Assembly: GCA_034211275.1 (NCBI GenBank)
Contig: JAXHTF010000006.1
Coordinates: 17,361-81,360, forward strand
DNA length: 64,000 nt
Origin: Acidobacteriota bacterium
GTDB lineage: Bacteria; Acidobacteriota; Thermoanaerobaculia; Multivoradales; JAHZIX01
Direction of reading: 5' to 3'
The position numbers and the translations under genes were made by a program. Below the pieces are notes generated by a model. The model was not told the DNA's origin. It saw only the letters and a list, made by a program, of their open reading frames with translations, and did no database searches. Below, piece by piece: positions 19,444 through 64,000 of this stretch (position 1 is its first letter; each line of letters begins with the position of its first letter).

Positions 19444-19550
19444 GCCCGCATTCTACAGCCAATCGGCCTCCTACCGCCCTCCCGGCAAACAGCACCCGCA
19501 CCTCTTGACGTCCCTCGCCGTTCTGCATACACTCTCGCCTCTGACGGTTG

Positions 19551-19626
19551 CCTAGGTAGCTCAGTTGGTAGAGCACGCGACTGAAAATCGCGGTGTCGGT
19601 GGTTCGATTCCGCCCCTGGGCACCAT
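19551..19626 (+). tRNA. tRNA-Phe (anticodon GAA), including encoded CCA.
   Basis: gcctaggtagctcagttggtagagcacgcgactGAAaatcgcggtgtcggtggttcgattccgcccctgggcacca forms a canonical cloverleaf with anticodon loop cuGAAaa. Confidence 0.9.
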
Positions 19627-19693
19627 TTCAATCTCCCAGAATCAACAGTTTGCGTCGGATATAGAGGTCCTCCTTGGAGGGCCTTTTTTGGTT
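19580..19693. repeat. attL: left copy of a ~110-bp direct repeat (tRNA-Phe 3' half plus ~65 bp downstream).
   Basis: gactgaaaatcgcggtgtcggtggttcgattccgcccctgggcaccatttcaatctccca is identical to 52375-52434. The following ~50 bp (…gaggtcctccttggagggccttttttggt) are near-identical to 52441-52488. Confidence 0.85.
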
Positions 19694-33750: not shown

Positions 33751-34509
33751 TTACTCTGAGTTTGAGCACATCAGTTTGCCTACAAGCCTGTTTAAGAGTT
33801 CCTCATCCTCTGGAGACAAGTCCCCGAGAGCTTTCAGGCTACTTCGCAGTTTGAGTAGCTCTTCGCGAGCCCAGAAAAGCTTCTCGCTTTTTAAGTCAAG
33901 AATATTCAGGAGAAGTCGGTGTTTCTCTGACGCATCTAGTTCACGGAGAACCTCCAGTTTTTCACCTTTGTAGTACCGTTCTCTTAGATTATTCGTCTCC
34001 TTGATGGCGTTATAGATAGATCTGAGCGCTGGTAGTGCTGCTTGCATACTGGTCGAAAGTGCCGGCTCATCTTCACTTCTACTTTCACTGAGATGGGGTA
34101 CAAGCTTCTCGAGTAGGGTGCCGACAAGTTCAAAGTTCTTGCTGTGGAGTAGCTGCTCTTCAGTGAAGCCTGTCCAGTAAAGAGTTTCGGCGCTTAGAGG
34201 AGGGTGAAACTCGAGCTTGCATGAGATCTGAGCAAGGCCCTGACGATCAAAAAGTCCAGTCTTGAACAAAGACAGAGCAATGTGTTTGTCGCTCCATACT
34301 TGGACGGGCTCAGGAGTGGATTCCAAGAGTCTGCGAACCTCTTGGCGACGTTCTGATACTTGCTCTAGAAGCAACTGAAGCTGATCCCGCAGGTAGGTGA
34401 GGCGATCAAGTTCCTCTAGCGCATTGTGTGCAGGGTGCGCGAGCAGGGGAAGGGCGTTGTGCTCCTGTGGGCCCGGGGCGACAGCCTCGGGGAGTTCCGA
34501 TGTTGACAT
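33751..34509 (-). CDS. Hypothetical coiled-coil protein (252 aa); middle gene of the cargo operon.
   Basis: Heptad-rich LEELDRLTYLRDQLQLLLEQVSERRQEVRRLLE. No known domain. Confidence 0.45.
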   Translation of the reverse strand: MSTSELPEAVAPGPQEHNALPLLAHPAHNALEELDRLTYLRDQLQLLLEQVSERRQEVRRLLESTPEPVQVWSDKHIALSLFKTGLFDRQGLAQISCKLEFHPPLSAETLYWTGFTEEQLLHSKNFELVGTLLEKLVPHLSESRSEDEPALSTSMQAALPALRSIYNAIKETNNLRERYYKGEKLEVLRELDASEKHRLLLNILDLKSEKLFWAREELLKLRSSLKALGDLSPEDEELLNRLVGKLMCSNSE

Positions 34510-35622: not shown

Positions 35623-36474
35623 TCAGCGCTCCCGGTCGCGAGATTGGGGCTTTTTGGCTGGAGGCGCACGGGAGCGGTCGAGCGAGGAATTGGGAAGCTC
35701 CGGCGCAAGCCGCCAGGCCTGACGCGCGCGCTCAAAGGTCTCGGCGAGCCCCAGCGTCGTCAGCCGATAGCGTCGACCACTGCGCAGATCCTCGACGCCG
35801 ATGGTCTTGCCCCGCTGGTAGAGGCGGAGGCCCTGCTGAAGGAGGCGCTGGTAGCACTCGGCGCCCGACCATGACCGGCTGAGCTCCTGCTGGATCAGTT
35901 CACATAGGACTTGCTTGCGACTGGGCGCTCGCTCTCCACGCCGGCGACGCTCTTGTTCTGCCCGCGTCTCGTGTTGCTTGCTTCGCGAACGGGGTCCTTG
36001 CGCCAGGGAGTGGCTCAGCTGCGGATAGCGCTGCTTCTGGTACTGCTCCAGCTGCTGTTGTACCTGGCGGAACTCTCGTCTCGACAACCGCAGGCGCTGC
36101 GAGCTGCCGACGTTGTTGGCGGAGATCACCAGGTGAACGTGCGGGTTGTCCGCATCGAAGTGAGCGCGACCGTAGGCCAGGGCGTACGGAGCCCGCAGCT
36201 CCAGGTACCGGCGGGTCAGGTCTGTCAGATCCTCAGGGGCGAGCTGATCTCGATCCCCCGGTGCAAAGCTCAGCACCTCGTGGTAGAGCACGTTCCCGTT
36301 CTTGCGCGGTGGCAGGAGATGGGCGTTGTGCAGGAACTCCCGCCGGATCGCTTCGGGTGAACCGTGTCCTCCGAAGTTGTGGAGGAGTGGAGTGCTGGCT
36401 TCTTGGGGCCGGTCGATGTAGCTCAGCAGCTGGCCGAAGCTGATGCTCTTACGCGCCATCGACTTGATGATCAT
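35623..36474 (-). CDS. Relaxase/mobilization nuclease (MobA/VirD2-like, HUH).
   Basis: MIIKSMARKSISFGQLLSYI... NVLYHEVLSFAP ... NPHVHLVISANNV is the Relaxase/Mobilisation nuclease domain pattern with its His cluster. Start is the Met at 36474 (cat verified), overlapping the mobC end. Confidence 0.75.
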   Translation of the reverse strand: MIIKSMARKSISFGQLLSYIDRPQEASTPLLHNFGGHGSPEAIRREFLHNAHLLPPRKNGNVLYHEVLSFAPGDRDQLAPEDLTDLTRRYLELRAPYALAYGRAHFDADNPHVHLVISANNVGSSQRLRLSRREFRQVQQQLEQYQKQRYPQLSHSLAQGPRSRSKQHETRAEQERRRRGERAPSRKQVLCELIQQELSRSWSGAECYQRLLQQGLRLYQRGKTIGVEDLRSGRRYRLTTLGLAETFERARQAWRLAPELPNSSLDRSRAPPAKKPQSRDRER

Positions 36475-36841
36475 GAGCCTGGCTATCGCTGGGAAGTTCC
36501 TCGAGGGTCTTCTGGAGCACGCCGACCACGCGCTCCAGCGTGAGCACGAGCTTGCCAGCGTTGCGCAGGTCTTGGTGGGTGACCCGCTGGAAGGAGTTGG
36601 CATGCGCCGCCATCTGGTTGAGGTTGGTGCCGACGCGACGAATCTCCTGGATCATCTGCCCCAGGTGCTTCTGGAGAGAGTCCGGCAGCATCGTGCGTCG
36701 CTGGCAGTAGGCGATGGCCGCATCCCGTAGGAAGGGCGCGAGCTTTGCGCCGAAGCTCCGGGCGGTGGTGAGCAGCAGCTCGTGCTGGTGGGGGTAAAGG
36801 TTGCAGGTGACGCGGTGCGTGTAGGTGCCGTGCAAGGCCAT
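36449..36841 (-). CDS. mobC: MobC-family relaxosome accessory protein.
   Basis: EIRRVGTNLNQMAAHAN matches the MobC signature (IRRIGNNLNQIAR..N). It sits upstream of and overlaps the relaxase gene. Confidence 0.7.
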   Translation of the reverse strand: MALHGTYTHRVTCNLYPHQHELLLTTARSFGAKLAPFLRDAAIAYCQRRTMLPDSLQKHLGQMIQEIRRVGTNLNQMAAHANSFQRVTHQDLRNAGKLVLTLERVVGVLQKTLEELPSDSQAHDHQVDGA

Positions 36842-40067: not shown

Positions 40068-41885
40068 CTATTGAGGTTTGATGTCAGGCATGAGGTTATA
40101 AGGAATATAGTATCCTGATATGAGCAGTGTGTGCCCGCTTTTTCCATCCTCGGGCAGGGCTAAGTCCTTGGGTACTTGGAAGGTGACTTCCTCTCCCTTT
40201 CGGAGAGTGAGGTAGTGGCCGTCGATACGGTGTAACTCACTGAGTTCGGATAGGGGAACTGCGGAGTCGGTTGGCTGAGAGCAGTCAGTGCAGATTGCTA
40301 GATAATCCAAGAAGGAGACTTCATCTTCTTCTTCTGAGAGAGTGAATTCCGTTACTCCCAGTGGGAGGGTGATTGAGTCCGTCATCTGAAACGTCCGGGT
40401 TACAGCCTCTGGGAAAACTGGTCGCAACCGAACTCTTTTTGCGTTCTTGGTGGCATAGAGGATCGGGCAGGAACCTTTTGCAAAGCCTCCCCGAACAAGG
40501 ACATTGGTTGGGTCGAAGCGACGGACAGAAAGAGAAGAGCGGGCTTTTCCAAAGCTTGCTACTATATGGTCAACGCGCCAGGAGGACCCTAGAATGTAGC
40601 TGTCCGTGATGTTCTTGAAGAAGGCCTTCTGGTCCAGTAGCTCCTTCGAGACTTCTCGAGACTTGAGGATGGCCTCTCGGTTTTGATCGATTCCGAGTAG
40701 AAACTGTATCCCAACTGCGTCGCCTGGGTACTCAGCCCACCATCTCTGTGGGAGATCCCGCTCCAAGAGTATGTTCTCTGCACCCCGATCTCCATATCTA
40801 CCATTCGATCCTAGTCTGAACTCGATTTGGAGGGGCACGAGAAGGTGTTCTCCTGGGAGCAGCTCTTCCAAGGGTACTTTCTGGGGATCAGGGTCGCTTG
40901 CCTCGAAGGCGTCGGTTTGTTCTTCTGGGCTTGTTAGCGTGAATGCCTTTCTTGATATAGATCTTGACAGAAGTCGCTCAATTGCCACTGGCTGATCGCT
41001 CACGTTTTCTATATCTAGAGAAAGCAGGGAGACCTCGCGCTGGAGTATATGCCCCGAGTAAGTGCCCCAGCTCTCTGAGAAGCGAGCCAGAAAAAGATCT
41101 TTTGGCGGGGAATCCACTGACAAGAGAGCGCGGGTAAGAGGGTCGTTAAGGTATTGAGTTGCTTCTTCTGGGCTTAGGGTGCCAAGAAAATAGAAGTCGA
41201 AGGGTCTAAGGGGCTGCTTGAGAATCTGGGCGCGATCATCTGGGGCAATAGTCCAGTAGGGGCTATCAAGCAGGCGTTTCTCAAGAGTTGATGCCTCTAC
41301 GTTCTTGATTAGAGGGCCTGCTCTAAGGGGCCTCAAAGATCCGAATAGGGGTTCTCGCAAGCGTCGCCATTCGTCCCTGTCGACGACTCCTGGTATATCT
41401 TTAAAGAATTCTTCCTCTCCTTTATTTCCCATGAAAACATTCATGGCGTCATATGGTAGCCGATGCTCTGGCGCATGAGCACTAATGCCTCCGCGCATCT
41501 TAGTTGCGCCCTTGATGGTGTACCTGATGACCTCTTCTAGATCCTTGAAAATGTCATTTTTTAACCAGTATGGTTCGAATAGAAAACCCTCCTTCTCGGA
41601 GAATGCATAGCCCTTCAGGGCGCGATCAAGAAGCAGTAGGCCATCTAGGCGAAGGTAGGATATTCGGAGATCCCTGTCTTGTGGTCCGGAAGCCTCATCC
41701 AATTTGTCGAAGTTTGCCTTGCCCATTCTACTATTTCTTGCTGAGTCATTGGGGCAGGATCCAGTGAGAAACAAGACCAAAGAGATCGCCGGGCCGAGCA
41801 CTCCTGCAATGCATCCAATATAAGTGGCTTTGGAAGGCAAATGCCATTTATTCCACTGTGTGCGTGTGGGGATGAGTTTCTTCAT
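40068..41885 (-). CDS. Hypothetical large membrane-anchored protein (605 aa), low GC (~48%).
   Basis: N-terminal TM helix YIGCIAGVLGPAISLVLFLTG. The large domain has no motif I can assign. Confidence 0.5.
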   Translation of the reverse strand: MKKLIPTRTQWNKWHLPSKATYIGCIAGVLGPAISLVLFLTGSCPNDSARNSRMGKANFDKLDEASGPQDRDLRISYLRLDGLLLLDRALKGYAFSEKEGFLFEPYWLKNDIFKDLEEVIRYTIKGATKMRGGISAHAPEHRLPYDAMNVFMGNKGEEEFFKDIPGVVDRDEWRRLREPLFGSLRPLRAGPLIKNVEASTLEKRLLDSPYWTIAPDDRAQILKQPLRPFDFYFLGTLSPEEATQYLNDPLTRALLSVDSPPKDLFLARFSESWGTYSGHILQREVSLLSLDIENVSDQPVAIERLLSRSISRKAFTLTSPEEQTDAFEASDPDPQKVPLEELLPGEHLLVPLQIEFRLGSNGRYGDRGAENILLERDLPQRWWAEYPGDAVGIQFLLGIDQNREAILKSREVSKELLDQKAFFKNITDSYILGSSWRVDHIVASFGKARSSLSVRRFDPTNVLVRGGFAKGSCPILYATKNAKRVRLRPVFPEAVTRTFQMTDSITLPLGVTEFTLSEEEDEVSFLDYLAICTDCSQPTDSAVPLSELSELHRIDGHYLTLRKGEEVTFQVPKDLALPEDGKSGHTLLISGYYIPYNLMPDIKPQ

Positions 41886-42035: not shown

Positions 42036-43160
42036 ATGCCTCTAAATATAAACCTCCTTCCCAAAGATCTTACCACTCTCCGCCAAAACACCCACTGGCG
42101 TGACCTCTTCAGCGCCCTCCAGATCCAAAAGGATCCGAAGAAGTCCAAAGGCTCGGATTGGTGGGGCAAGAGCCCCTTCCGGCCGCAGGAGAACACTGCG
42201 TCGTTCCACATGAACGCCCGGGGCTGGTACTGCCACGCTACCGGTCAGGGTGGTGGGCCAATCGAGCTTTTGCAGCGGCTGCATCCAGGGATGAGCTGCT
42301 ACGACGCCGGACGTTGGCTCCTAGATCATGGTGTGAGTCGCATTGTCGAAGGAGTGCGCGAGGAAGTCGCGGCTGCTGAGAGTGAGCCGGAGGAGGAAGT
42401 CCGTGAGAATCCACCGATCCGGCAGGATCTTAGGTCGCAGCTCGCGCCCGTGCATCCCAGCTTCGAAGAGCGTGGGATTCCTGCGCAGACGTTAGAGATT
42501 CTCGGTGCTGGGTACTTGGAGCGTCCGCCGCGGAAGAGTGGTAAGCCCGATCCGATGAACCAGCGGCTGGTCTTCCAGATTCGCTCGCTCCGGTCGAACG
42601 ACGCCGGCGACCTGGTGCCGGTGATCGTGGGGCATATGGGACGCGCTACCAGCGTCGAGCAGGCGGAGCAGGACGGCAAGTGGTGGACATACGGTGGGTT
42701 CCGCAAGAGTTTGGAGCTCTACAACGTGGATCTCGCGGTCTTGAATCCGGAAGCGCGGGCTCAAGCGGCGGAGACCGGCCATGTCCTGGTGGTCGAGGGC
42801 TGCTTCGATGTTGCCAAGCTCTACGCCGCGGGGATCAAGAACGTCGTGGCCTTATTCGGCAGTCGGCTGAGCGAGCGCCAAGCCGAGCTGCTGGCGACGT
42901 TAGCTGAAGAAGTTGGTGTCGAGCGCCTGCGCTTCTTTCTGGATCGCGATGAAGCTGGCCAGCAAGGGACGGCGTCCGCTCAGGAGCTGCTCCTTCGAGC
43001 GCCGGAGGAGAATCCTGGTCTCGTGGTCGACTCCTTCGACTGGGGGCAATCCTGGCAGTCTCCTGTCCGTGGAGCCGTGCAGATCCCTGCCTCGATCACC
43101 GATCCCTGCGACTTCTCTCTGGGGCAGCTGCAATGGCTGCGTGCGGAGGGCCTTCTCTAA
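42036..43160 (+). CDS. DNA primase (CHC2 zinc finger plus TOPRIM), mobile-element type.
   Basis: SKGSDWWGKSPFRPQENTASFHMNARGWYCHATGQGG (CHC2 zinc finger), and VLVVEGCFDVAKLYAAGIKNVVALFG (TOPRIM E...D). Confidence 0.75.
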   Translation: MPLNINLLPKDLTTLRQNTHWRDLFSALQIQKDPKKSKGSDWWGKSPFRPQENTASFHMNARGWYCHATGQGGGPIELLQRLHPGMSCYDAGRWLLDHGVSRIVEGVREEVAAAESEPEEEVRENPPIRQDLRSQLAPVHPSFEERGIPAQTLEILGAGYLERPPRKSGKPDPMNQRLVFQIRSLRSNDAGDLVPVIVGHMGRATSVEQAEQDGKWWTYGGFRKSLELYNVDLAVLNPEARAQAAETGHVLVVEGCFDVAKLYAAGIKNVVALFGSRLSERQAELLATLAEEVGVERLRFFLDRDEAGQQGTASAQELLLRAPEENPGLVVDSFDWGQSWQSPVRGAVQIPASITDPCDFSLGQLQWLRAEGLL

Positions 43161-43170
43161 CTTTCCCTTC

Positions 43171-44058
43171 TTGAAGACTTCTTCTCTCCATCGAGAATTC
43201 CGGCAATACGCTCTCGCTGATCGTGGCCTCCAGCCGCGGACCGTTCGCGACATCGTGACCATCGTTGGTCGACTGACCGCCTTCAGCCGCACAGAGCGGC
43301 TCGCCAAGCTCACCACGCCGCTCATCCAGAGCTTCCTGCGGCATGGACGGATGGAGAAGGGCTGGGGCACTCGGACCTTCCGACTCTATCGCCAGTACCT
43401 GAAGGCTTACTTCGAGTGGTGCGTCCGAGCTGGCTATCTTGCGGAGAATCCCGTATCCCCCATCGAGAAGCCGCGGCTCCCTCAAAGCCTGCCGCGGTGC
43501 CTCTCTCATCGGGAAGCCCGTCAGGTGCTCTACGCTGCGCGCCACGCCTCCTGGCCAACCGAGCTCCAGCGCTGCCGCAGCGAAGCGATGGTGGCGACGT
43601 TCCTTATGACTGGTGTGCGCCGGGCAGAGCTCCTCCGGCTCGAGGTGGCGGATCTCAGTTTTCGGGCTGGGACGATGACGATCCGCGCCGGCAAAGCTCG
43701 GAAGGATCGGACCATTCCGCTCCATCCCCAGCTGGTGCCGATCCTGCTGGGCTACCTGGAGGAGAAAGGGCGCCAGAAGAGGGAGTCGCTGTTCCTGTTC
43801 TCCAGCATGCGTTCCGAGAAGCCGCTCACCGCGAAGAACCTCTACGCCATCCTGGAGCGCGTCGCCCGCAAGGCTCGCGTCAAGTTCACGCCCCACATGC
43901 TCCGCCATACCTTCGGTCGCGAGCTCGTCGAGGCGGATTTCAACGTGTACAAGCTCAAGGAGGTGATGGGGCATGCCAGCGTAGCGACGACGCAGAGCTA
44001 CGTGGCGCTGTCCTCGAAGAGCATCAAGGAGAGTTTCGAGCAAACGAGAATTTATTGA
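43171..44058 (+). CDS. Tyrosine recombinase (XerC/XerD-like phage integrase family), the second on the island.
   Basis: N-terminal SAM-like LHREFRQYALADRGLQPRTVRD...; catalytic region ...RAGKARKDRTIPL...HMLRHTFGRELV...GHASVATTQSYV (R..H-R-Y). The start is uncertain: TTG at 43171 or GTG at 43141 just after the primase stop. Confidence 0.7.
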   Translation: MKTSSLHREFRQYALADRGLQPRTVRDIVTIVGRLTAFSRTERLAKLTTPLIQSFLRHGRMEKGWGTRTFRLYRQYLKAYFEWCVRAGYLAENPVSPIEKPRLPQSLPRCLSHREARQVLYAARHASWPTELQRCRSEAMVATFLMTGVRRAELLRLEVADLSFRAGTMTIRAGKARKDRTIPLHPQLVPILLGYLEEKGRQKRESLFLFSSMRSEKPLTAKNLYAILERVARKARVKFTPHMLRHTFGRELVEADFNVYKLKEVMGHASVATTQSYVALSSKSIKESFEQTRIY

Positions 44059-44188: not shown

Positions 44189-46471
44189 TCAAGCTAGTCC
44201 CGTCAATCGCTGTGAGCCTCCAGAGCGATCACTGTGTGACTGTGCGGCAGATCGCAGCAGGGCTTCCATTTCTTTGAAATGCGCCGGGGCTACTGATTTA
44301 ATAAGCGTCATCACATCCGCCATGACCGGCTGAGCTTCTGAGAGCTGAGACATATCTTGGTCGGCCGAGGACTCGAAATCTTCATTGTGAGAGAATGCAT
44401 GAGTGAATCTTACAATCCTAGTTGCCCGAACTGGCTCGCCATGGGAGAGTTCCTCGATTGCTCTTTCGAAGCTAGACCTGCGTGTGGGTCTGTGAAAACT
44501 AATGAATGCCTCTAGAAGGCGGCGCGCAGTATTGGGGAGATGACAAATTTCCTGATCGTGCAATGAGTCAGCCTGGGCCGCCGAGTGCACTATAGAAAAT
44601 AAGTAGTGATATTCAGATTCGAAAGTTCTGAGTAGGTAGTCCAGGGGCTGGAGAACTGCTTTACGCTCTCCGCTCGAATCAAGAAGAGCCTTCAGGGAGT
44701 AAAGGGAGCTGTTCTTCCTGTCTCCCAGGAACCACCTGCGAACGAGTCGAAAGAACGTGAAGTTGTGCGTCAAGATGAAAAGCTGCTTCGCCCCTACTGT
44801 CTTCGCGCGGATGAAGCTGAAGGCATTGAAGAGCGCATTCGAATCAAGGCTTGAGACGGGGTCATCTAGTACAACAATACCCTCCGAGACCTGGAAGGTC
44901 TGATCATGGAGACTCTGGAGGAAATAGAGAAGAGCGATTGCGGTGCGCTCACCTTCACTAAGACCCGTTGCTACAGATGTACCCGACCTAACTATCTGGT
45001 ATCCTTTCCCGAAAAGTTCAAAGCTTAGCTCGTCTCGGCCTAAGTACCTTCTAAGGTCTTTCGTGAGCTGTTCGGCTGAGAAGCTATGGGGATCAACGCG
45101 GCTCTTGATCTCCTTGACCTTCTCTTCAAGCTTCTGGATAGCCTTCCTGGAGGTCTTCTCATTCTCTCTGCATGCCTGTAGATCCTTCAAGAGCTGTGAG
45201 CGCTCATCTCCAGCCTCTGCAATGTGATGCTCTTCAATCTCTTTGCAAGCGCTATCCGCTCTGTCCTGGAGCGACTTCGTCTGCTGGTTGTGACTCAAGA
45301 TAATTGCATTAATAGACGCAATAGAGGAAGCCAGGTCAAGCTGAGTGTGAGCAGGAGGAATGGCAGGCGTCGAAAAAGGATTTGCTCGCTTCTCCTCCAA
45401 GCAGGCCTGGATTATCTCTAGCCTCTCAAGGTATGCCTCGATTTGTTCCTTGAGCTTGGCGCTTGCGGAGCGGTAGGAGTCAAGGTGATCCTGATACAAT
45501 TCTCCCTCTGTCGGAAGAGTATGTCTCACCAGAGTCTCGCGAGAGGTTGCTATTCCTTCCAGCTGCCTTTCTATGTCCTCCGTGAGCTGTCTGTGGCCCT
45601 GAGCAAAATAGTCTTCAAGTGCTTTGAGTCGCTCCTCTTCCAAGTGGTTGCCGCAGAAGCCGCACTGTTCCGCTTGGATGGCACGATGTAGCTGAAGGCC
45701 AGTGTCAACCCAGTTTCGCAAGTCTGAATTACTCTCCAAGGCCTCCATGGACTGCCGGGTTATGCTTCGGCTGAGAACCTCAGAAGCCGCTTCTTCAATA
45801 GAAGAGATGTTTGGATCCTGAATTGAAACGCTGTGCAGGTCGGGCCGCGGTTGCTGATTCTTTGTATGGGCAAGCGCCTTTAGTTCATCATCAGTTCTGA
45901 CCAGCTCGGACATAGGCCTACTGGACAGTTCGTCTGCTCGTCGTTCGTAGTCGTTTCGCTTGTAGTGTTGGTAACTCGGATTCCCGAGGAGCCGATCTTT
46001 GATTGCCTTTGCGGTGTCCTGCTGGTGTTTAGCCCAAGCGTTGTTTGCGGTCTTGGTTTCATTCTCGGCCTGAATCAGCTTCTTTCGCTCTTCCCTGAGC
46101 AGACTGGAGATCTCTTCCAGTTCTTTTTGATCAGCGATGTTCTCCTGTCCGAGAAAGACAATCCCGGGCATTCCTGACGGATTAAAGACGTTCTTCTCGA
46201 CGAAGCTCTTGGTGAAGACTTTGATTGGGATCTGCTCCAGCGCAGCCTCATTGCTGCTGTTAATCTTCTGGTTCTCAAGCTGAACCTCAAAAGAGCTGTT
46301 AGGGTTCTGAGTTCCAGTCTCGATCTGTCGCATGATCTCGACTAGAGAGGTCTTGCCGGCTCCGTTCCATCCGTAGATAAGGTTGTAGCGGCTGAAATCA
46401 TCGAGGCCAGGAGGCCAACTGAAATCTTGGAATAGGGCCGGTGCTTGAATTCGGAGAAATTGCTTGATCAT
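44189..46471 (-). CDS. RloC/PrrC-like AAA_13-family ABC ATPase (putative anticodon nuclease / abortive-infection protein) with a CxxC zinc hook.
   Basis: 760 aa. Walker A LIYGWNGAGKTSL. A long coiled coil carries AEQCGFCGNHLEE (CxxC). ABC signature/Walker B SEGERTAIALLYFL...GIVVLDDPVSSLDSNALFNAFSFI...LFILTHN. C-terminal HLPNTARRLLEAFISFH...FTHAFSHNED gives Arg/Glu/His spacing like the PrrC ACNase triad. GC is ~45%. Confidence 0.6.
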   Translation of the reverse strand: MIKQFLRIQAPALFQDFSWPPGLDDFSRYNLIYGWNGAGKTSLVEIMRQIETGTQNPNSSFEVQLENQKINSSNEAALEQIPIKVFTKSFVEKNVFNPSGMPGIVFLGQENIADQKELEEISSLLREERKKLIQAENETKTANNAWAKHQQDTAKAIKDRLLGNPSYQHYKRNDYERRADELSSRPMSELVRTDDELKALAHTKNQQPRPDLHSVSIQDPNISSIEEAASEVLSRSITRQSMEALESNSDLRNWVDTGLQLHRAIQAEQCGFCGNHLEEERLKALEDYFAQGHRQLTEDIERQLEGIATSRETLVRHTLPTEGELYQDHLDSYRSASAKLKEQIEAYLERLEIIQACLEEKRANPFSTPAIPPAHTQLDLASSIASINAIILSHNQQTKSLQDRADSACKEIEEHHIAEAGDERSQLLKDLQACRENEKTSRKAIQKLEEKVKEIKSRVDPHSFSAEQLTKDLRRYLGRDELSFELFGKGYQIVRSGTSVATGLSEGERTAIALLYFLQSLHDQTFQVSEGIVVLDDPVSSLDSNALFNAFSFIRAKTVGAKQLFILTHNFTFFRLVRRWFLGDRKNSSLYSLKALLDSSGERKAVLQPLDYLLRTFESEYHYLFSIVHSAAQADSLHDQEICHLPNTARRLLEAFISFHRPTRRSSFERAIEELSHGEPVRATRIVRFTHAFSHNEDFESSADQDMSQLSEAQPVMADVMTLIKSVAPAHFKEMEALLRSAAQSHSDRSGGSQRLTGLA

Positions 46472-46866: not shown

Positions 46867-47769
46867 ATGCCCTCTGAATTGCGCACCTGGCACGAAGCTT
46901 TCTGCCAGCACTGCCTGGTCATGAAGCGCCAGTCGCCCTACACGGTCCGCGGGTACCGCGACACCCTCAATAGCTTCGTCAAGTACACCGGCGCAGCGGC
47001 CCTCGCCGATGTGACGCTGGCGAAGGTGGAGTCCTGGATCATGACCGGGACGACGCAGTGCCAGTGGTCACCGGTGACCAGCCGGGGCCGCATCAAGTAC
47101 ATGATCCTGTTCGCCAAGTGGTTGGTGAGCCGGGGGCATCTGGAGTCGAATCCGCTGGAGGGAATTAGCCTGCCCTCTATCCCGAAGAAGATTCCGCGGT
47201 CCCTGTCGCGGGAGCAGGCTGAGCAGCTTCTGCGCTTCGCCCGGAACTTTTCCTTCCAGACAGAGTTCGAAGGTGCCCGTGCCTACGCAATTCTGGCGAC
47301 CTTCATTTACACCGGCATCCGCAAGAGAGAGCTCCGCGAGCTGGAGCTCCGTGACGTCGATCTAGAGAACGGGATCCTCGCGGTGAGGGAGGGAAAGGGG
47401 GCCAAGGATCGGATGGTCGCCATCCCGCCCCAGCTGGCCTTGGTCCTGCGCGAGTACCTGAAGCACCGCCGCAGTCCGAGATATCAGCAGCTTCCGTACT
47501 TCTTCGTCGGAGCTACGGCCCTAGGTGGTGTCGGCAACGAGGCAATCCGTCGCTTGGTGAAGAAGCTCCGAGATGCCAGCGGCATCTACTTCGCGCCCCA
47601 CATGCTCCGGCACACCTATGCCACGCTGATGCTGGAAGGCGGCTGCGACCTGTTCAGCCTCTCGAAGCTGCTGGGGCACGCGGATATCAAGACGACTACG
47701 GTGTACCTGTCCGCTTCGGTGAGGCACCTTCAGAAGGAGGTGTTGAAGCATCCGGTTGTCGTTCACTAG
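46867..47769 (+). CDS. Tyrosine recombinase (XerC/D-like), the third on the island.
   Basis: 300 aa, ...AILATFIYTGIRKRELRELELRDV...GKGAKDRMVAIP...HMLRHTYATLML...GHADIKTTTVYL gives the R-H-R-Y catalytic set. Confidence 0.75.
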   Translation: MPSELRTWHEAFCQHCLVMKRQSPYTVRGYRDTLNSFVKYTGAAALADVTLAKVESWIMTGTTQCQWSPVTSRGRIKYMILFAKWLVSRGHLESNPLEGISLPSIPKKIPRSLSREQAEQLLRFARNFSFQTEFEGARAYAILATFIYTGIRKRELRELELRDVDLENGILAVREGKGAKDRMVAIPPQLALVLREYLKHRRSPRYQQLPYFFVGATALGGVGNEAIRRLVKKLRDASGIYFAPHMLRHTYATLMLEGGCDLFSLSKLLGHADIKTTTVYLSASVRHLQKEVLKHPVVVH

Positions 47770-47891: not shown

Positions 47892-49601
47892 GTGAAAAGA
47901 GTGAGACGAAAGAGAGAGAGACAGTTCAAGGGGGCCAAGTCAGCTACGAGGCAAGCCTTATTTCTATTGAAGGCATGCGACCTAGATTGGCTCTGGAAGT
48001 TCTGTGCCCTCATTTCCTGTCATGATCTATTTGGGCCAACACTTGCTGAGGGTGCCAATGCCCTTTATGTCAATTTCGCCAAGACTAGGGCTCTTGTTGA
48101 TCTTGTGCTGAAGTCCGGGGCCAGAGATGATGTGGATAAAATACTCCATATGGAAGAGGTGCGAGATCTCCTTAACTTGCTAGTTGATGTCCAAAATGAT
48201 CCAGAGGTTTTCAAGAGCGCAGAAAAGGCGAAGGGGACTCCGGCGGCGGCTTTTGAGTTCCATCGATCTATGTGCAGGCTAGGTAGCAATCAGACTGCTG
48301 ACCAGGAGGGGGTTTTCTGGAATGCAGCAGGTCGACTAATTGCTAAATGGGAGCTCCTGCCTCTTGAGAACCAGAGCCTACTTCCTAGTCGAGAACGACA
48401 GCGCGTCTTGGAGGTAGCTCATAGGATTCCTGAAGTTCTTGGTGCTGAGATATCGGAACTGAGTCTGGTCTGCTTGGCAATATTTCAGGTGTATAGGGAT
48501 GCCTACGCGAATCTTTCTCGCACACTTCCCGTCATACCGCACGAGGCTTTTTGCAGCCAATATGAGAAAAGGCAAGCACTTGATCAGCTGATGACGGCTC
48601 TGGAGGCTGGGGGATTCAGCGATCTATTGGTGATAAATCCCCGTCGTCTCCGGGAAATGCTTCGCGATAAGGAAGGCTTGGTTGATTCCTATCTTTCTCT
48701 CTTCAGTCGGTCTGTTGAGGAGCTTCGCTCGCTGCAGAAGGATTATTCTGTGGGTCAGTCACCTCACTACAGCCGAGATTTGAGCGTGCTTGATCGCTTT
48801 CCGCTTGTTAGGAGGGCCGATGGAACCTATATCGTGCCGAATGTCCGGTTTCTTTTGAAAAGTTTCGTTCCCAATGTCGAGTTCACCCTGGTTGAGCTTC
48901 TAGGTGACAATTTCTGGCACGCGAACGGGGCGACTCAAGAGGCTTATCTTCTAAAGCTACTCTCGGCCCGTCTTCCAGGATACACGCTGGTGGAAGAGCG
49001 AGCCTATGGAAAGCAGGAACTCCGGGGACCTGATGTCACTATTGTTGATGCTCAGGCGGAAGGTCTAATACTTGTGGAGTCGAAAGGAAAGAGGATTGGG
49101 GCGAGAACGAGGTTTGTTATGTCTGATGATCTTCTTGATGACAACCTGAAGGTCGCCTACTCTGCTCTACAAGGCCTGCCGGTGAAATTTGAGGCTTTAT
49201 TGAGTGGCATCCCAGAGTATGCTGATGCCCAAGATGCTCTAGATTCCGCGCGGTCGAACTCCCCGATTTGTGTTGTGGTTATGAACGACTCGGTCATGAT
49301 GATGAGCGAGCTGATTCGTATGTTGATTGCCATGAATCCTGAGCACCAACTTCAGGGGTTTCCTTTTCAATTTTGCATTGTCGGAATCGGAGCCTTCGAG
49401 CTAGCAGTGGAAGTGGCGAGTAGGAATGGTAGCTCGTTGTACAGGTTGCTTTCCCAGCACTGGGAGAGAAGCGCCGAGATCGATCCTGGGAGAGGCTCTG
49501 CTGACCTGTTTGGTGGATTCTGGCCGGATACGGAGCCGGCTTTTGGGGCAGAGTTACTTAGGGCGAGGCTGAAGAGTAGGCTTGGCGATCTCGTTGCGTG
49601 A
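47892..49601 (+). CDS. Hypothetical protein (569 aa) with a C-terminal PD-(D/E)xK nuclease-like motif, low GC.
   Basis: ...RGPDVTIVDAQAEGLILVESKGKRIGA matches the D-x(n)-(D/E)-x-K restriction-endonuclease-fold core. The N-terminal 380 aa are unassigned. GC is ~48%. Confidence 0.5.
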   Translation: MKRVRRKRERQFKGAKSATRQALFLLKACDLDWLWKFCALISCHDLFGPTLAEGANALYVNFAKTRALVDLVLKSGARDDVDKILHMEEVRDLLNLLVDVQNDPEVFKSAEKAKGTPAAAFEFHRSMCRLGSNQTADQEGVFWNAAGRLIAKWELLPLENQSLLPSRERQRVLEVAHRIPEVLGAEISELSLVCLAIFQVYRDAYANLSRTLPVIPHEAFCSQYEKRQALDQLMTALEAGGFSDLLVINPRRLREMLRDKEGLVDSYLSLFSRSVEELRSLQKDYSVGQSPHYSRDLSVLDRFPLVRRADGTYIVPNVRFLLKSFVPNVEFTLVELLGDNFWHANGATQEAYLLKLLSARLPGYTLVEERAYGKQELRGPDVTIVDAQAEGLILVESKGKRIGARTRFVMSDDLLDDNLKVAYSALQGLPVKFEALLSGIPEYADAQDALDSARSNSPICVVVMNDSVMMMSELIRMLIAMNPEHQLQGFPFQFCIVGIGAFELAVEVASRNGSSLYRLLSQHWERSAEIDPGRGSADLFGGFWPDTEPAFGAELLRARLKSRLGDLVA

Positions 49602-49830
49602 TCTCCTGGTTCTGGGCTCGGATGAGAATGCGCCTGGCTGAGAGGATGAGCGGGTGCCTTCGCGTGCTGGGTGGTGAGACGATGGTTCTGAATCAATTTG
49701 GCAGCAAGGCTCGGCGCAATGGCTAGCAAGAGATCCTTCCTTGTTGGATTATTCTGGAGCAAGATGATCTGTCTTGGGGGGTATTGTGGGAATAGGAAGA
49801 GAAATTTCTGATATCGGTGGGAGGTGATTA

Positions 49831-50766
49831 TTGAAAACGATTTGGAGGGTGTTGAGGGTTTCTCTGGGCTGGCTATCTCGTTTGTTCATGGGGTTCATCA
49901 AGCTACCCAAGAGAGGATGGCTTTCCTACGCGCGATGGGCTGAGAGGCATCGGGGCGGGATACCCGCTATCCAGCTCCTTTCTAGCGTGGCTTTTGCTGT
50001 TATGTCGGTCATAGTCTCTTCTCTTGCGATTAATCTCGCCCGGGAGCAGAATCTTCTGGTTGAGCGCCAGGTGCAGCTTGCGGATGAGCAGGGTGAGCTT
50101 GCGAATAGGCAGCTCGCTCTGGCTGAGGCTCAGATCAAGCCGAAGATCAGGTTAAGATACAGATCAGAGTGTAAGAGTGGAGAAGTCTGTCCTTTCGGAG
50201 ACTACGACTGTGTCGAGTTTTGGAACGATTCTGGGCCTCTCGAAGGTCTCAATGTAATGCAGCATAGCTTTCTATTGGTGAGTCGAAATGATAGGCCTAA
50301 TGAAGAAGTACGTTATGTTCCTATGTACTATCTTCAGTCGAGGCAGCTGACGGGGGCCGGTCGGGGGTTACTTGGTACTTTCTGCGCTTTTATGAAGGAG
50401 GTGAATTCTCGCAATAGAACGGCGAAAGTCGAGAAGATAAGATCTTCCCTCTGGGAGAGAGGGGTATTCAATATTGACGTGAGAGTTGTGCTTAATTTCT
50501 TGTACGTAGATCTTCTCGGGAGGAAATATGATGAGTTCTACTTGGCTCCTGCGGGGGCCTTTTGGTCTGGAGATCTACCGGCTACCATACTTTCCCCTGA
50601 AGAGGCTAAGCAGGCTTGGGAGATGGGTTTTGCAGAGCCTTGGTTCGGTGATCCTGTGATGCTAGGTAACGCACTTGACACAATTGATCATAATTATTTA
50701 GAGCGGAACTGGGACAGCTTACCGGTGGTGCGGCAGCCTCTATTAGAGACCTTGCAGGTTCGCTAG
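49831..50766 (+). CDS. Hypothetical membrane-anchored protein (311 aa) downstream of the nuclease-like gene.
   Basis: TM helix IQLLSSVAFAVMSVIVSSLAINLA, then a coiled-coil stretch. No motif. Confidence 0.45.
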   Translation: MKTIWRVLRVSLGWLSRLFMGFIKLPKRGWLSYARWAERHRGGIPAIQLLSSVAFAVMSVIVSSLAINLAREQNLLVERQVQLADEQGELANRQLALAEAQIKPKIRLRYRSECKSGEVCPFGDYDCVEFWNDSGPLEGLNVMQHSFLLVSRNDRPNEEVRYVPMYYLQSRQLTGAGRGLLGTFCAFMKEVNSRNRTAKVEKIRSSLWERGVFNIDVRVVLNFLYVDLLGRKYDEFYLAPAGAFWSGDLPATILSPEEAKQAWEMGFAEPWFGDPVMLGNALDTIDHNYLERNWDSLPVVRQPLLETLQVR

Positions 50767-51009: not shown

Positions 51010-52170
51010 TTACTCGTAGGCTCTCAAAGCCGCCGCCAACTCCCCCGACACCCTCTCTGCCGCCTCCTTGAGGGGATCATCCGCCAGATGCGCATACCGC
51101 GCCGTAGTCGCGGGCTGGGTATGCCCCAGAAGCCGGCCGATGATGGGCAGGCCAATCCCAGCGCCGGCGGCGAAGGCGGCGTGAGTGTGGCGGAGATCGT
51201 GGAGGCGGACGTCTTCGAGGCCTGCCGCGGTTCGGATGCGGTCCCAGGGGCGCTGGAGGCCGACTAGGCGCTGGCCCTTGCGGTAGCCGGCGCAGACGAA
51301 AGGGTTGTCCTCGCGTCGGGGCGCTTCCACCAAGAGCTGCAATGCGGCGGCGCCGAGGCGAATCACTTTCTGGCCGGTCTTCGAGTCCGGCAGCCTCAGA
51401 CAGCCCTGCTCGAAATCCACGAAGGACCACTGGAGCTCCAGGATCTCGTTGCGGCGAGCGCCGGTGAGGATCAGCAGGCGGATGGCGAGGAGGGCTGAGG
51501 GATGCTCGGTCTCATGGCGCTCGGCCTCGGTGAGGGCCTCGCCCAGGCGACCGAGCTCGGCTGCGGAGAGGAATCGCTCGCGCTTCTGTTCCTTGTAGCG
51601 TTCCACGTGGCGGCAGGGATTCGAGTTGAGGGGGCGGAGGCCCCAGCGCTCGGCGAGGTTGAACATCTTCGAAAGCAGCGCCAGGACCCTGTTGGCCTGG
51701 GTTCGCTTTTGGCGCATCTCGTAGTGCAGGGTCGAGATCTGCTCCAATTGGATGTCTGTGACCCGGCGCTTGCCGAGCTGCGGGAGGACATAGAGGCGCA
51801 GGAGCCGCTCATCGGTCTGAGCGCTGGAGGCCTTCTTCTTGACCCGGGCGTGCTCCTCCAGATAGCGCTCCGCCAGATCAGCCACGGTGGGGGCGCGGCG
51901 CTGGTCCTGCCGGACCTGGCCCGGATCGTTGCCGAGAGTGACTTCCGCCAGGACCTTCCGAGCCCGGTCACGGGCCTGCTCGATGGTCAGGACTCCGTAG
52001 CGGCCCAGGGAGAGGAATCGCTTGCGGCGCCCAACGCGGTAGGAGACCAGGAAGTACTTCTTGCCCGACGGGTAGATGCGGACTCCAAAAGCCGGGAGAG
52101 TGTCGTCCCAACGGTAGTCTGTGCCTCCCTCATAGGTGGCGGAGTCGAGGGCGGTCTTGGTCAGTCTCAT
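51010..52170 (-). CDS. Site-specific tyrosine integrase (P4-like, DUF4102-type N-terminus) of the island.
   Basis: MRLTKTALDSATYEGGTDYRWDDTLPAFGVRIYPSGKKYFLVSYRVGRRKRFLSLGRYGVLTIEQARDRARK (P4-type arm-binding N-terminus). Catalytic ...HDLRHTHAAFA...GHTQPATTARYAH. The ATG at 52170 was verified. The longer track ORF (to 52422) reads antisense through the tRNA-derived repeat. Confidence 0.85.
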   Translation of the reverse strand: MRLTKTALDSATYEGGTDYRWDDTLPAFGVRIYPSGKKYFLVSYRVGRRKRFLSLGRYGVLTIEQARDRARKVLAEVTLGNDPGQVRQDQRRAPTVADLAERYLEEHARVKKKASSAQTDERLLRLYVLPQLGKRRVTDIQLEQISTLHYEMRQKRTQANRVLALLSKMFNLAERWGLRPLNSNPCRHVERYKEQKRERFLSAAELGRLGEALTEAERHETEHPSALLAIRLLILTGARRNEILELQWSFVDFEQGCLRLPDSKTGQKVIRLGAAALQLLVEAPRREDNPFVCAGYRKGQRLVGLQRPWDRIRTAAGLEDVRLHDLRHTHAAFAAGAGIGLPIIGRLLGHTQPATTARYAHLADDPLKEAAERVSGELAAALRAYE

Positions 52171-52374
52171 GGGGCATCTCCAGGTCGAGCGGCCAGGTCC
52201 GAGATCGAGGCTCGCGCAACCAGTGCGCAACCAAAACGCAACCAGGATAGGCCGAAATCCATGGTGCAAGCTCGCTGTCCATGGCTCGAAGGCTAGCACA
52301 TAAGTATAGTAATTAGAGAGACTTAAGAGGTCTTGTCGTAGTTGATCGAAATCTGTGTAAGACGCCTGTTCGAG

Positions 52375-52488
52375 GACTGAAAATCGCGGTGTCGGTGGTT
52401 CGATTCCGCCCCTGGGCACCATTTCAATCTCCCAAAAAGCAAGAGCTTGTGTCCGATACGAAGGTCCTCCTTGGAGGGCCTTTTTTGG
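52375..52488. repeat. attR: right copy of the tRNA-Phe-derived direct repeat.
   Basis: Matches tRNA-Phe from the anticodon loop to the 3' end plus downstream sequence; see attL. Confidence 0.85.
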
Positions 52489-56441: not shown

Positions 56442-56591
56442 CCCGTGGTAAAAGTCGAGCCGCGCTCCGAGCGGCCCTTTTCCGCCGAATCTTCGTTCGA
56501 AAACCTCGCCGATACCAGCATCGCGGCGGTTTTCCGGCCTTGATTCGACGAAAAATTCCTCGCTCTCGCTGGCGTCTGACTTTTACCACGG
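56442..56591. repeat. MITE-like ~150-bp element with 14-bp terminal inverted repeats, copy 1.
   Basis: TIRs ccgtggtaaaagtc … gacttttaccacgg. Internal hairpins gaaaacctcgccg…cggcggttttc. A second copy (~95% identical over 98 bp) lies at 63903-64000. Confidence 0.6.
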
Positions 56592-59772: not shown

Positions 59773-59846
59773 CCGTGATTAGCTCAACTGGTTAGAGCAC
59801 CGAACTATTACTTCGGATGTTGTGGGTTCAACTCCCGCATCACGAC
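59773..59846 (+). tRNA. tRNA-like gene with a canonical cloverleaf but a non-standard anticodon (AUU by my parse) and a C1·A72 mismatch; a possible unusual tRNA or pseudo-tRNA.
   Basis: ccgtgat-ta-gctc-aactggtta-gagc-a-ccgaa-ctATTac-ttcgg-atgtt-gtggg-ttcaact-cccgc-atcacga-c. 74 nt, with perfect D, anticodon and T stems. No encoded CCA. Confidence 0.45.
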
Positions 59847-60351
59847 CGCTGTTTGTCCAACAGCCATCGCACTCGAATCGAAGGGGACGACCGCCGCGGT
59901 GGGCGGGGCTGCCCAAGCTTCGGACTGGCTCCCTTGGATTTGGGCCTTCGGGCTCGAGTCTGGAGGACCGGTTCTTCGGCTCCGGGCCGCCCCGCCCTCC
60001 GCGCCCGCCGGCAAGGCGAGCCTCGGCTCTCTTTCCGGCAGCGCCGTAGGCCGCCCTGCAGCGCGTGGATACCGCTTCCTCGGAAGCTCCGGACACCGGC
60101 GACCCGCGCCCAGGCTTTGTTCCTGGAGCGCCGGCGCCGGTGGCAAGGAGCTGCCCGAGGTCGCTCAAGCGTCGCTCCGTGGCCCAAGCGTGGTGCCCGT
60201 AGCGGTCGTCCCCGGACGTTCCTTCGCTGATCCAAATGGGTTCGAAGTTGGTTTGTGGAGAGGAACCGGCTGAGCTGGATCTTCTCCGAACGATGTCCTC
60301 GCCCCCGGTTCTGCCGGGACTCTGAAACCACGCCGCAACACACAAGGAGGT

Positions 60352-63902: not shown

Positions 63903-64000
63903 CCGTGGTGAAAGTCGAGCCGCGCTGCGAGCGGCCCTTTTCCGCCGAATCTTCGTTCGAAAACCTCGCCGATACCCGCATCGCCTGCGGTTTTCTGGCC
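63903..64000. repeat. MITE-like element copy 2 (truncated by the window end).
   Basis: ccgtggtgaaagtcgagccgcgctgcgagcggcccttttccgccgaatcttcgttcgaaaacctcgccgatacccgcatcgcctgcggttttctggcc, compared with 56442-56540. Confidence 0.6.

Follow-up and report, generated by a model that had tools for sequence, protein, structure and literature searches.

The locus and the island that carries it

The window that we analyzed, a 64,000-nucleotide stretch of DNA from an Acidobacteriota metagenome-assembled genome (MAG), holds a 32.8-kb conjugative or mobilisable island integrated in tRNA-Phe. Its left-end att repeat (positions 19579-19641, plus strand) lies within and just past the intact tRNA-Phe gene (19550-19625), and pairs with a right-end repeat (52375-52437, plus strand) that duplicates the 3'-terminal 47 nt of tRNA-Phe together with 16 nt more. 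Near the integrase, at one end of this island, we found two plus-strand open reading frames, of 569 aa (47892-49601, GTG start) and 311 aa (49831-50766, TTG start), with exactly the coordinates given in a first-pass annotation of this DNA. They lie, as was also claimed there, between the gene for a 300-aa Xer-like tyrosine recombinase (46867-47769, plus strand), which is directly upstream of the 569-aa gene, and the gene for a P4-type integrase (51010-52422, minus strand). A neighbouring cargo gene, with the same low-GC composition as the pair, encodes a 760-aa AAA_13 ATPase (44189-46471, minus strand) that matches the PADLOC candidate defence family PDC-S06.

The description of the two genes as low-GC cargo of an integrated island was borne out by the att repeats that bound the island and by base composition, with a GC content of 50.9% (GC3 0.52) for the 569-aa gene and 50.2% (GC3 0.54) for the 311-aa gene, compared to 61.7% for the adjacent recombinase and 66.5% for the P4-type integrase, although the figure of about 48% previously given for both genes was too low. 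Repeats that could mark the ends of a cassette around 46.4-51.1 kb were sought, with only short, chance-like matches as the result.

A PD-(D/E)xK core with conserved catalytic residues

The GTG start of the 569-aa open reading frame was backed by homologs, in which the N-terminal 20-40 residues and the preceding basic tail were conserved; the annotated gene call of the closest homolog is too short. An AF2 model (pLDDT 93.1, pTM 0.92) depicted a single compact protein in four parts: a basic, disordered, Arg/Lys-rich tail (residues 1-13), an all-helical N-terminal domain delimited by the secondary structure of the model (residues 14-337; 47931-48902, plus strand), a PD-(D/E)xK nuclease core (residues about 339-500; 48906-49391, plus strand), and a C-terminal helical cap that follows this core. 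The helical domain is presumably a sensor or regulatory domain; Q134 within it was nearly invariant, and residues 211-260 formed its most variable segment when conservation was compared by region. The modeled core had the topology alpha-beta-beta-beta-alpha-beta (helix 339-360, strands 365-368, 382-386 and 391-398, helix 412-437, strand 459-464), with D on beta2 and (D/E)xK on beta3, the arrangement by which the PD-(D/E)xK superfamily is recognized.

The first-pass annotation had called this protein PD-(D/E)xK nuclease-like, with a textbook restriction-endonuclease-fold core, and had proposed that the D/E/K positions be checked in an alignment of homologs. Both the canonical core of the model and the alignment of 88 homologs (mean column identity 23%) upheld that assignment, as the catalytic aspartate D381 of the GPD motif (49032-49034, plus strand) was conserved in 88/88 sequences and the ExK motif E396-S-K398 (49077-49085, plus strand) retained its glutamate in 88/88 and its lysine in 86/88, the remaining two having arginine. 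These residues belong to the motif GPDVTIVDAQAEGLILVESKGKR (49026-49094), in which D386, conserved in merely 50/88, is not the catalytic aspartate. An acidic residue of the first core helix, E350 (48939-48941, plus strand), was conserved in 83/88. Conservation of the D/E/K residues is thus far above chance.

Neither the 569-aa nor the 311-aa protein matched any family in Pfam (E<=0.1), PADLOC 2.0 or PHROGs, and no Pfam family was common to more than one of the 88 relatives. A Foldseek search with the 569-aa model found no match at E<=1e-3 in PDB or BFVD, and profile searches against PDB sequences produced no genuine match and did not recover Upx.

The 569-aa protein as a distant relative of GapS1

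The sole curated family matched by the 569-aa protein was NCBIfam GapS1 (NF047931, antiphage_GapS1; E 9.5e-8, 31.3 bits), with residues 262-423 aligned to profile positions 177-338 of 455, a score ten-fold lower than the NCBI curated cutoff of 320 bits and thus short of strict NF047931 membership. The GapS1 model, and no other NCBIfam model, was also matched by 53/88 homologs (best E 5.4e-23, 81.6 bits). In the distant relatives P0152, P0140 and P0151, the match to the GapS1 profile ran from about position 27 to 439 of 455, as it did in plasmid proteins of Pseudomonas, Rhodococcus and Kitasatospora; the plasmid-borne relatives, which were reached by using the more GapS1-like P0152 as the query, were also GapS1-like below the cutoff. 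When the 569-aa family was aligned with these GapS1-like relatives in hhalign, columns 9-540 were collinear with columns 3-494 (probability 100%, E 9e-59), and the GPD…ExK of the one was aligned with the GPD…ExK of the other. Members of the GapS1-like alignment used in this comparison matched the GapS1 profile at about 27-391 of its 455 positions. The GapS1 match, the matches of the homologs and the collinear profile alignment place the 569-aa protein in the GapS1 superfamily. From these comparisons, in which the tie to authentic GapS1 runs via the HMM and intermediates rather than direct sequence comparison, it appears to be a distant full-length relative of GapS1 from a rare clade of the superfamily that has no name yet. 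The earlier statement that nothing is recognisable in the first ~380 residues therefore no longer holds, as part of the GapS1 match falls within them and GapS1-like proteins align with the whole of the N-terminal helical domain.

GapS1 is a stand-alone, single-gene, phage-triggered PD-(D/E)xK defence protein; in the GAPS1 of Vibrio parahaemolyticus (WP_005477165.1), D313 and K328 proved essential, the trigger is a capsid protein, and homologs from E. coli with 24-29% identity are functional (Mahata et al., bioRxiv 10.1101/2023.03.28.534373). Like GapS1, the 569-aa protein is a single polypeptide that is helical in its N-terminal part and has its PD-(D/E)xK domain in the C-terminal half, and both are carried on mobile islands beside recombinases. 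Its specific profile similarity, collinear architecture, catalytic D and K, and absence of a conserved partner are those of the broad GapS1-like superfamily. However, it is ~110 aa longer than GapS1, and it differs from GapS1-like proteins in its Arg/Lys-rich N-terminal tail and in an extra stretch of the helical domain (residues ~206-244, taking in most of the variable 211-260 segment) that fell in an hhalign gap and has no counterpart in the shorter proteins. The D-to-K spacing is 15 in GapS1-like relatives, as it is between D313 and K328 of GAPS1, whereas in the 569-aa protein it is 17 and the beta2-beta3 hairpin is 2 residues longer. Because of the extra length, helical stretch and longer hairpin, its trigger and regulation may differ from those of GapS1. 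The hosts differ as well (an Acidobacteriota MAG here, Gammaproteobacteria for GapS1), and the island here, an ICE/IME in tRNA-Phe, has a P4-type integrase and no recognised GMT trio.

The family comprised 171 homolog clusters in 1.84 billion, and the clade has so far come almost exclusively from metagenomes and MAGs. A word-indexed homolog search returned the 569-aa protein itself and one relative, with no additions when it was rerun with the 88-sequence alignment; a metagenome scan for family loci found one locus, and locus scans of genome and viral collections found none. A tblastn search of plasmids with the 569-aa protein gave no match, and family members were absent from the phage, plasmid and GTDB-representative collections searched, so the host range and ecology of the clade are poorly sampled.

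It is improbable, in our estimation, that the protein is instead a restriction-type endonuclease acting alone, either a Type IV or modification-dependent enzyme or an orphan of Type II, whose N-terminal domain recognises foreign DNA directly, with no phage-protein trigger. Its likeness to FokI, N.BspD6I/R.BspD6I, McrC and HindIII, as well as to the NucC, Can2, SduA and HamA effectors, is confined to the restriction-endonuclease-fold core of about 130-200 residues, the matches that bear on this alternative covering 145-200 residues of it. Flanking domains and partners differ, and the locus lacks a methyltransferase, CARF/SAVED domain or helicase partner. Furthermore, no recognisable DNA-binding module or Pfam match was seen in the N-terminal domain, and the only family-level sequence signal was that of GapS1. 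One homolog does adjoin a methylase-containing Hma system, but it lies beside this system and not inside it.

The adjacent 311-aa gene

The 311-aa gene looks real, its TTG codon being preceded at 6 nt by GGGAGGTGA, a strong Shine-Dalgarno sequence. Its predicted product has an N-terminal amphipathic helix, one strongly hydrophobic segment (residues ~44-70) that is the putative transmembrane segment, and ~200 C-terminal residues. A single-sequence AF2 model, which was reliable for residues 1-100 only, contained a confident long helix at residues 44-101. These features fit the single-pass membrane protein with a coiled coil that had been predicted earlier.

The first-pass annotation had further likened the nuclease and this protein to an abortive-infection module. 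In such a two-gene system the membrane protein might act as an anchored sensor, immunity factor or second effector. The two genes are adjacent on the same strand and nearly equal in their atypical composition, and a promoter and terminator scan, which stayed at background level, found no terminator-like site within the 229-bp gap that separates them. However, that gap, together with the Shine-Dalgarno sequence of the 311-aa gene's own, favours independent expression. Among 5.8 billion proteins the only homolog of the 311-aa protein was itself, with none in plasmids, phages or PDB, and tblastn detected no relative in any examined locus carrying a nuclease family member. We compared ten other distinct loci that carry members of the nuclease family and found no conserved downstream gene or neighbour, the downstream gene being different, absent or convergent and the neighbourhoods unrelated. 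GapS1, too, is a single-gene system. On these grounds we consider the two-gene module improbable, and the architecture of a nuclease with a membrane partner was not sustained. The 311-aa gene shows no sign of being a partner, and is, judging by these searches, probably unrelated orphan cargo rather than a conserved component of the nuclease system.

Genomic contexts of the nuclease family

Recurrent neighbours of the nuclease genes in the ten loci were toxin-antitoxin modules, an Hma defence system (HmaB 1e-116, HmaC 3e-120) and a NACHT protein. Several contexts were not obviously defensive, and one homolog lies 18 bp past topoisomerase genes.

The closest homolog, which is 49% identical to the 569-aa protein, is on contig L001, where the nuclease gene is immediately preceded, in the same orientation, by a recombinase remnant with 83% identity to the last 117 residues (the 3' third) of the recombinase in the window. 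As the nuclease family is rare, this linkage is unlikely to be coincidental, and it speaks for a reading in which the protein is an accessory nuclease of the mobile element, its function coupled to that of the upstream tyrosine recombinase, for instance in excision, processing or cassette exchange, and not to immunity. We regard such a role as very improbable, since no recombinase adjoins the nuclease gene in the remaining nine loci, the L001 recombinase is truncated though its nuclease gene is intact, no signature of TnsA or of a transposase was seen, and the DNA homology between the window and L001 ends at the recombinase stop codon, which fits variable cargo downstream of a recombinase and not a co-evolving pair.

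Two further identities were rejected. A TnsA-type or transposon nuclease, which the first-pass annotation had named as an outcome that would refute its reading, does not agree with the absence of a TnsA-like domain, of a Pfam match in the protein or its 88 relatives, and of TnsB/TnsC-type or other Tn7 partners nearby, the neighbours being tyrosine recombinases, the AAA_13 ATPase and the orphan. A Type II restriction-modification system does not agree with the flanking genes at 42.9-52.4 kb, among which there is no methyltransferase. Upx (SeUpx, PDB 9wuf), to which the 569-aa protein is structurally similar, spans ~1200 aa in three domains, two of them nuclease domains, and is triggered by terminase (PMC13099982, PMC13601566); the 569-aa protein has neither this architecture nor sequence membership.

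A model for the 569-aa nuclease

We favor a reading in which the 569-aa protein belongs to the GapS1 superfamily and serves in defence as a nuclease of one polypeptide that acts alone, its gene riding as cargo on the tRNA-Phe island at the end nearest the integrase, and we consider this reading probable. The fold, the invariant catalytic residues, the full-length homology to GapS1 and GapS1-like proteins, the absence of a conserved partner and the mobile, accessory and defence-rich contexts were shown by the analysis, and from them we infer an anti-phage function, with a trigger, a substrate and an outcome as follows; in this respect the defence or abortive-infection-type role suggested at the outset is still the best reading. 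The helical N-terminal domain would pack on the Mg2+-dependent PD-(D/E)xK core (E350, D381, E396, K398) and hold it inactive until a phage-made protein binds and frees the nuclease, by analogy with capsid for Vibrio GAPS1 and terminase for Upx. The freed nuclease would then cut nucleic acid, and growth of the infected cell would be arrested.

A broader proposal, which we put forward as doubtful, is that these proteins are a deep, separate clade of trigger-activated nucleases whose helical and PD-(D/E)xK unit corresponds to the C-terminal effector half of Upx but stands alone, so that GapS1 and Upx would form one structural class. It would also have the nuclease gene as swappable cargo just downstream of the Xer-like recombinase gene, a hotspot for the diversification or exchange of immune alleles. 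The difference in identity between the recombinases (83%) and the nucleases (49%) of the two linked loci would point to such a recombinase-associated hotspot.

The locus reveals no new type of system, and its unusual-looking membrane "partner" is unsupported. If the GapS1-superfamily assignment is correct, however, GapS1-type single-protein, trigger-activated nuclease immunity spreads well past Proteobacteria and Firmicutes, reaching Acidobacteriota, Bacteroidota and a clade almost confined to metagenomes, one that PADLOC 2.0 and Pfam miss and that falls below the NCBI naming threshold. The 88-sequence alignment and the high-confidence model are resources gained for this clade, and the large helical domain of the model could be used for asking how phage proteins are sensed.

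Conservation of the nuclease site

Both open reading frames were found where the first-pass annotation had placed them, the 569-aa nuclease gene at 47892..49601 (+ strand, GTG start) and the 311-aa gene at 49831..50766 (+ strand, TTG start). The 569-aa protein had no match in Pfam, PADLOC 2.0 or PHROGs, and a word-indexed search of 5.8 billion proteins returned only itself (a hypothetical protein of an Acidobacteriota MAG) and one relative with 49% identity. HMMER, run exhaustively over 1.84 billion cluster representatives, detected 171 clusters with E<=1e-3, of which 91 had E<=1e-30; most were full-length (540-600 aa). The 20 clusters that we looked up were mostly singletons; 18 came from metagenome assemblies only, and the other two were from NCBI genome assemblies, including a Bacteroidota MAG.

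We aligned 88 full-length members (mean column identity 23%) and observed P316, G346, D381 and E396 in every sequence, E369 and Q134 in 87, K398 in 86 (with Arg in the remaining two), K432 in 85 and E350 in 83. As D386 was shared by 50 of the 88 members, the catalytic aspartate is D381, the D of 'GPD', rather than D386. The motif GPDVTIVDAQAEGLILVESKGKR is encoded at 49026-49094. This conservation of D/E/K among homologs upholds the PD-(D/E)xK nuclease assignment, and the nuclease call made initially was correct. The other identity raised at that stage, a TnsA-like nuclease of a Tn7-like transposon, was excluded, there being neither a domain match nor partners.

The closest homologs share the N-terminal 20-40 residues and the Arg/Lys-rich tail that precedes them. 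In one homolog that apparently starts at residue 41 (P0002), the conserved N-terminus was present upstream of the called start (MSCHDL…), which was set too far into the gene; starting instead at the in-frame ATG of L001:1107 gives an extra 'MRKKRREARS…ALALLNPCDVNWLWRLACN' (L001 1107-1242), a segment that matches the family's conserved N-terminus. The GTG at 47892 is a plausible start.

Relationship to GapS1

The sole curated family match of the 569-aa protein was to NCBIfam NF047931 ('antiphage_GapS1'), the family of an anti-phage nuclease of Vibrio parahaemolyticus (WP_005477165.1; Mahata et al.). This match (E 9.5e-8) aligned residues 262-423 with positions 177-338 of the 455-position profile, and its 31 bits were far below the 320-bit cutoff of the model. 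However, 53 of the 88 relatives matched NF047931 and no other NCBIfam model (best E 5.4e-23), showing that the signal is no single-sequence fluke. The profile was matched over about 27-391 in the most distant relatives (P0152, P0140 and P0151), and over about 34-439 in plasmid-encoded Pseudomonas, Rhodococcus and Kitasatospora proteins. Profile-profile comparison of the window's close family with GapS1-like proteins gave a probability of 100% (E 9e-59) with collinear columns 9-540. The N-terminal ~380 residues, previously described as matching nothing, therefore belong to the GapS1-like architecture.

The GPD…ExK motifs of the two sets aligned, although the window family has an additional stretch at about residues 206-244, and its D-to-K distance is 17, whereas that of the GapS1-like set is 15, equal to the D313-K328 distance of GAPS1. 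Mutation of these two residues abolishes defence by GAPS1, described as a single-protein system carried as cargo of Gamma-Mobile-Trio islands, which requires its PD-(D/E)xK site, has the T7 capsid protein as its trigger and causes dormancy rather than death (bioRxiv 10.1101/2023.03.28.534373). Through the curated HMM and intermediates, rather than direct comparison with authentic GapS1, we consider it highly probable that the 569-aa protein belongs to the GapS1 superfamily. Divergent as it is, the protein falls within a known type of single-protein anti-phage nuclease, in an unnamed and almost wholly metagenomic clade that current defence-finder models miss.

Predicted structure

AlphaFold2, supplied with the 88-sequence alignment, predicted a confident single globule (pLDDT 93.1, pTM 0.92) in which a basic tail is disordered and is followed by an all-helical region (residues ~14-337); the core has the canonical alpha-beta-beta-beta-alpha-beta arrangement, and helices form a C-terminal cap. 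The core elements were a helix at 339-360 (with E350), a strand at 382-386 starting right after D381, a strand at 391-398 (with E396 and K398), a helix at 412-437 (with K432) and a strand at 459-464. Foldseek searches of the model against PDB and viral models gave no significant match, and none was detectable in a sequence-profile search of PDB chains. In structural comparisons, the value for Upx, a single-protein defence nuclease (9wuf), was 9.9 with 353 residues aligned, followed by N.BspD6I (9.3), the R.BspD6I small subunit (8.9), FokI (8.5), McrC (8.0), HindIII (7.6), and Can2, NucC, SduA and HamA (about 5.6-6.7). That GapS1 and the effector half of Upx might form one structural class, travelling in a recombinase-associated hotspot, is a speculative and rather unlikely proposition.

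The downstream gene and the neighbourhoods of homologs

The first-pass annotation had proposed that the nuclease and the 311-aa membrane protein form a two-gene module resembling abortive-infection systems. Their common composition, which the nearby PDC-S06 gene has too, suggests that the two genes arrived together. The 229-bp gap and the Shine-Dalgarno sequence of the 311-aa gene (a strong GGGAGGTGA, 6 nt upstream of the TTG) suggest independent expression. The 311-aa protein has one hydrophobic segment (about residues 44-70), and its single-sequence AlphaFold model was a confident long helix at 44-101 with the remaining ~200 residues below pLDDT 50. It matched only itself in the 5.8-billion-protein collection, and nothing in Pfam, PADLOC, NCBIfam, PHROGs or PDB, nor by tblastn in plasmids, phages or any of the loci with family members.

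At ten other distinct loci, the gene 3' of the family member was different, absent or convergent, so that no downstream gene was common to them. This position held an opposite-strand antitoxin pair in L001, an unknown 158-aa protein in L002, a convergent 457-aa gene in L003-5, convergent genes in L009 and L010 (with RelE/MqsA in L010) and a convergent 333-aa gene in L014; in L006 a PIN gene and the gene of a 1341-aa NACHT protein lie close by, the L008 member starts at the last base of a ParE toxin gene, and the L007 contig ends about 240 bp past the family gene, placing any downstream gene out of view. The 311-aa protein is thus an unexplained orphan, its role as a partner is unsupported, and a two-gene module is improbable. 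The family's context is accessory, mobile and often defence-rich. In L003, L004 and L005 (1-7326), an Hma system that looks complete (SNF2/NOV_C helicase, HmaB methylase, E 1e-116, and HmaC ATPase, E 3e-120) immediately precedes the homolog P0011. In L002 (3453-9674), a gap of 18 bp separates a pair of topoisomerase genes (GyrB-like and ParC-like) from the start of the homolog P0007, which follows them on the same strand; this context does not resemble a defence island.

The integrated island and its recombinases

Both genes lie in a 32.8-kb integrated island bounded by 63-nt direct repeats (62/63 identical) at 19579-19641 and 52375-52437. The repeat combines the 3' 47 nt of tRNA-Phe, whose intact gene is at 19550-19625, with a further 16 nt, and the ~58 nt following each copy are also 83% alike, including a terminator-like hairpin. 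A type IV coupling protein (30780-32090), a MobA/VirD2-type relaxase (35623-36603, - strand) and a Toprim/zinc-ribbon primase-like gene (42036-43160) suggest an integrative conjugative or mobilisable element. Among these genes are several large low-GC ORFs with no Pfam match, at 32122-33696, 33751-34509 and 40068-41885 (all - strand). At the right end, the P4-type integrase's longest ORF (470 aa, 51010-52422, - strand) begins inside the tRNA-Phe fragment and reads through it ('GGIEPPT'; N-terminus 'MVPRGGIEPPTPRF'), so that the true start lies further in; it is probably the Met in 'MRLTKTALDS', which comes after about 85 codons and coincides with the beginning of the Arm-DNA-binding domain.

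The 569-aa and 311-aa genes are compositionally foreign (GC 50.9% and 50.2%, GC3 0.52 and 0.54), although slightly less so than the ~48% originally quoted; the upstream 300-aa recombinase has 61.7% GC (GC3 0.83) and the integrase 66.5%. Between the two Xer-like tyrosine recombinases (42913-44058 and 46867-47769, the latter of 300 aa; 29% identical), which are high in GC, a 760-aa AAA_13 ATPase of 51.1% GC, like the nuclease and its neighbour, lies on the opposite strand (44189-46471, - strand). It matched PADLOC PDC-S06, a candidate single-gene defence family (E 6e-211), with weaker similarity to PrrC and AbiLi. The island's right end is thus a small mosaic in which low-GC cargo genes alternate with host-like recombinase genes.

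Recombinase sequence again precedes the nuclease gene, in the same orientation, in L001, the locus of the closest homolog. At both the protein and the DNA level, this fragment (L001 586-951 vs window 47390-47756) shares 83% identity with the final 117 codons of the 300-aa recombinase; it is truncated, with unrelated sequence upstream. Beyond the recombinase stop codon the DNA similarity ceases, and identity between the nuclease genes is only 49%. Because the family is rare, coincidence is an unlikely explanation, but the linkage was seen in just two of 11 loci, the nine others having no recombinase, and an element-maintenance nuclease tied to the recombinase is very improbable. We read the linkage as cargo set downstream of a recombinase gene, with the immune gene diverging fast or being exchanged, and not as a functional pair.

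Proposed mode of action

The 569-aa protein is compact, has a nuclease core with an invariant acidic/lysine site, is homologous over its full length to GapS1-like proteins and has no conserved partner. We somewhat favour a GapS1-like phage-sensing nuclease that acts without a partner. Its helical N-terminal domain may keep the nuclease inactive and sense a phage-made protein, as GAPS1 responds to capsid (bioRxiv 10.1101/2023.03.28.534373) and Upx to terminase (PMC13099982, PMC13601566). Activation would then lead to Mg2+-dependent nucleic acid cleavage and growth arrest.

Additional sequence features

A ~110-nt repeat of about 80% identity, containing a GC-rich hairpin with CCTTTTCC after it, has two copies in the window (56459-56569 and 63919-63995) and a third in L001 (5488-5599), an unrelated contig. 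It had no match in Rfam and probably represents an intergenic repeat specific to the lineage. At 59773-59847 (+ strand), ARAGORN called a tRNA-Asn with the anticodon ATT, an unusual one since Asn tRNAs normally carry GTT, and Rfam confirmed a tRNA (58 bits).
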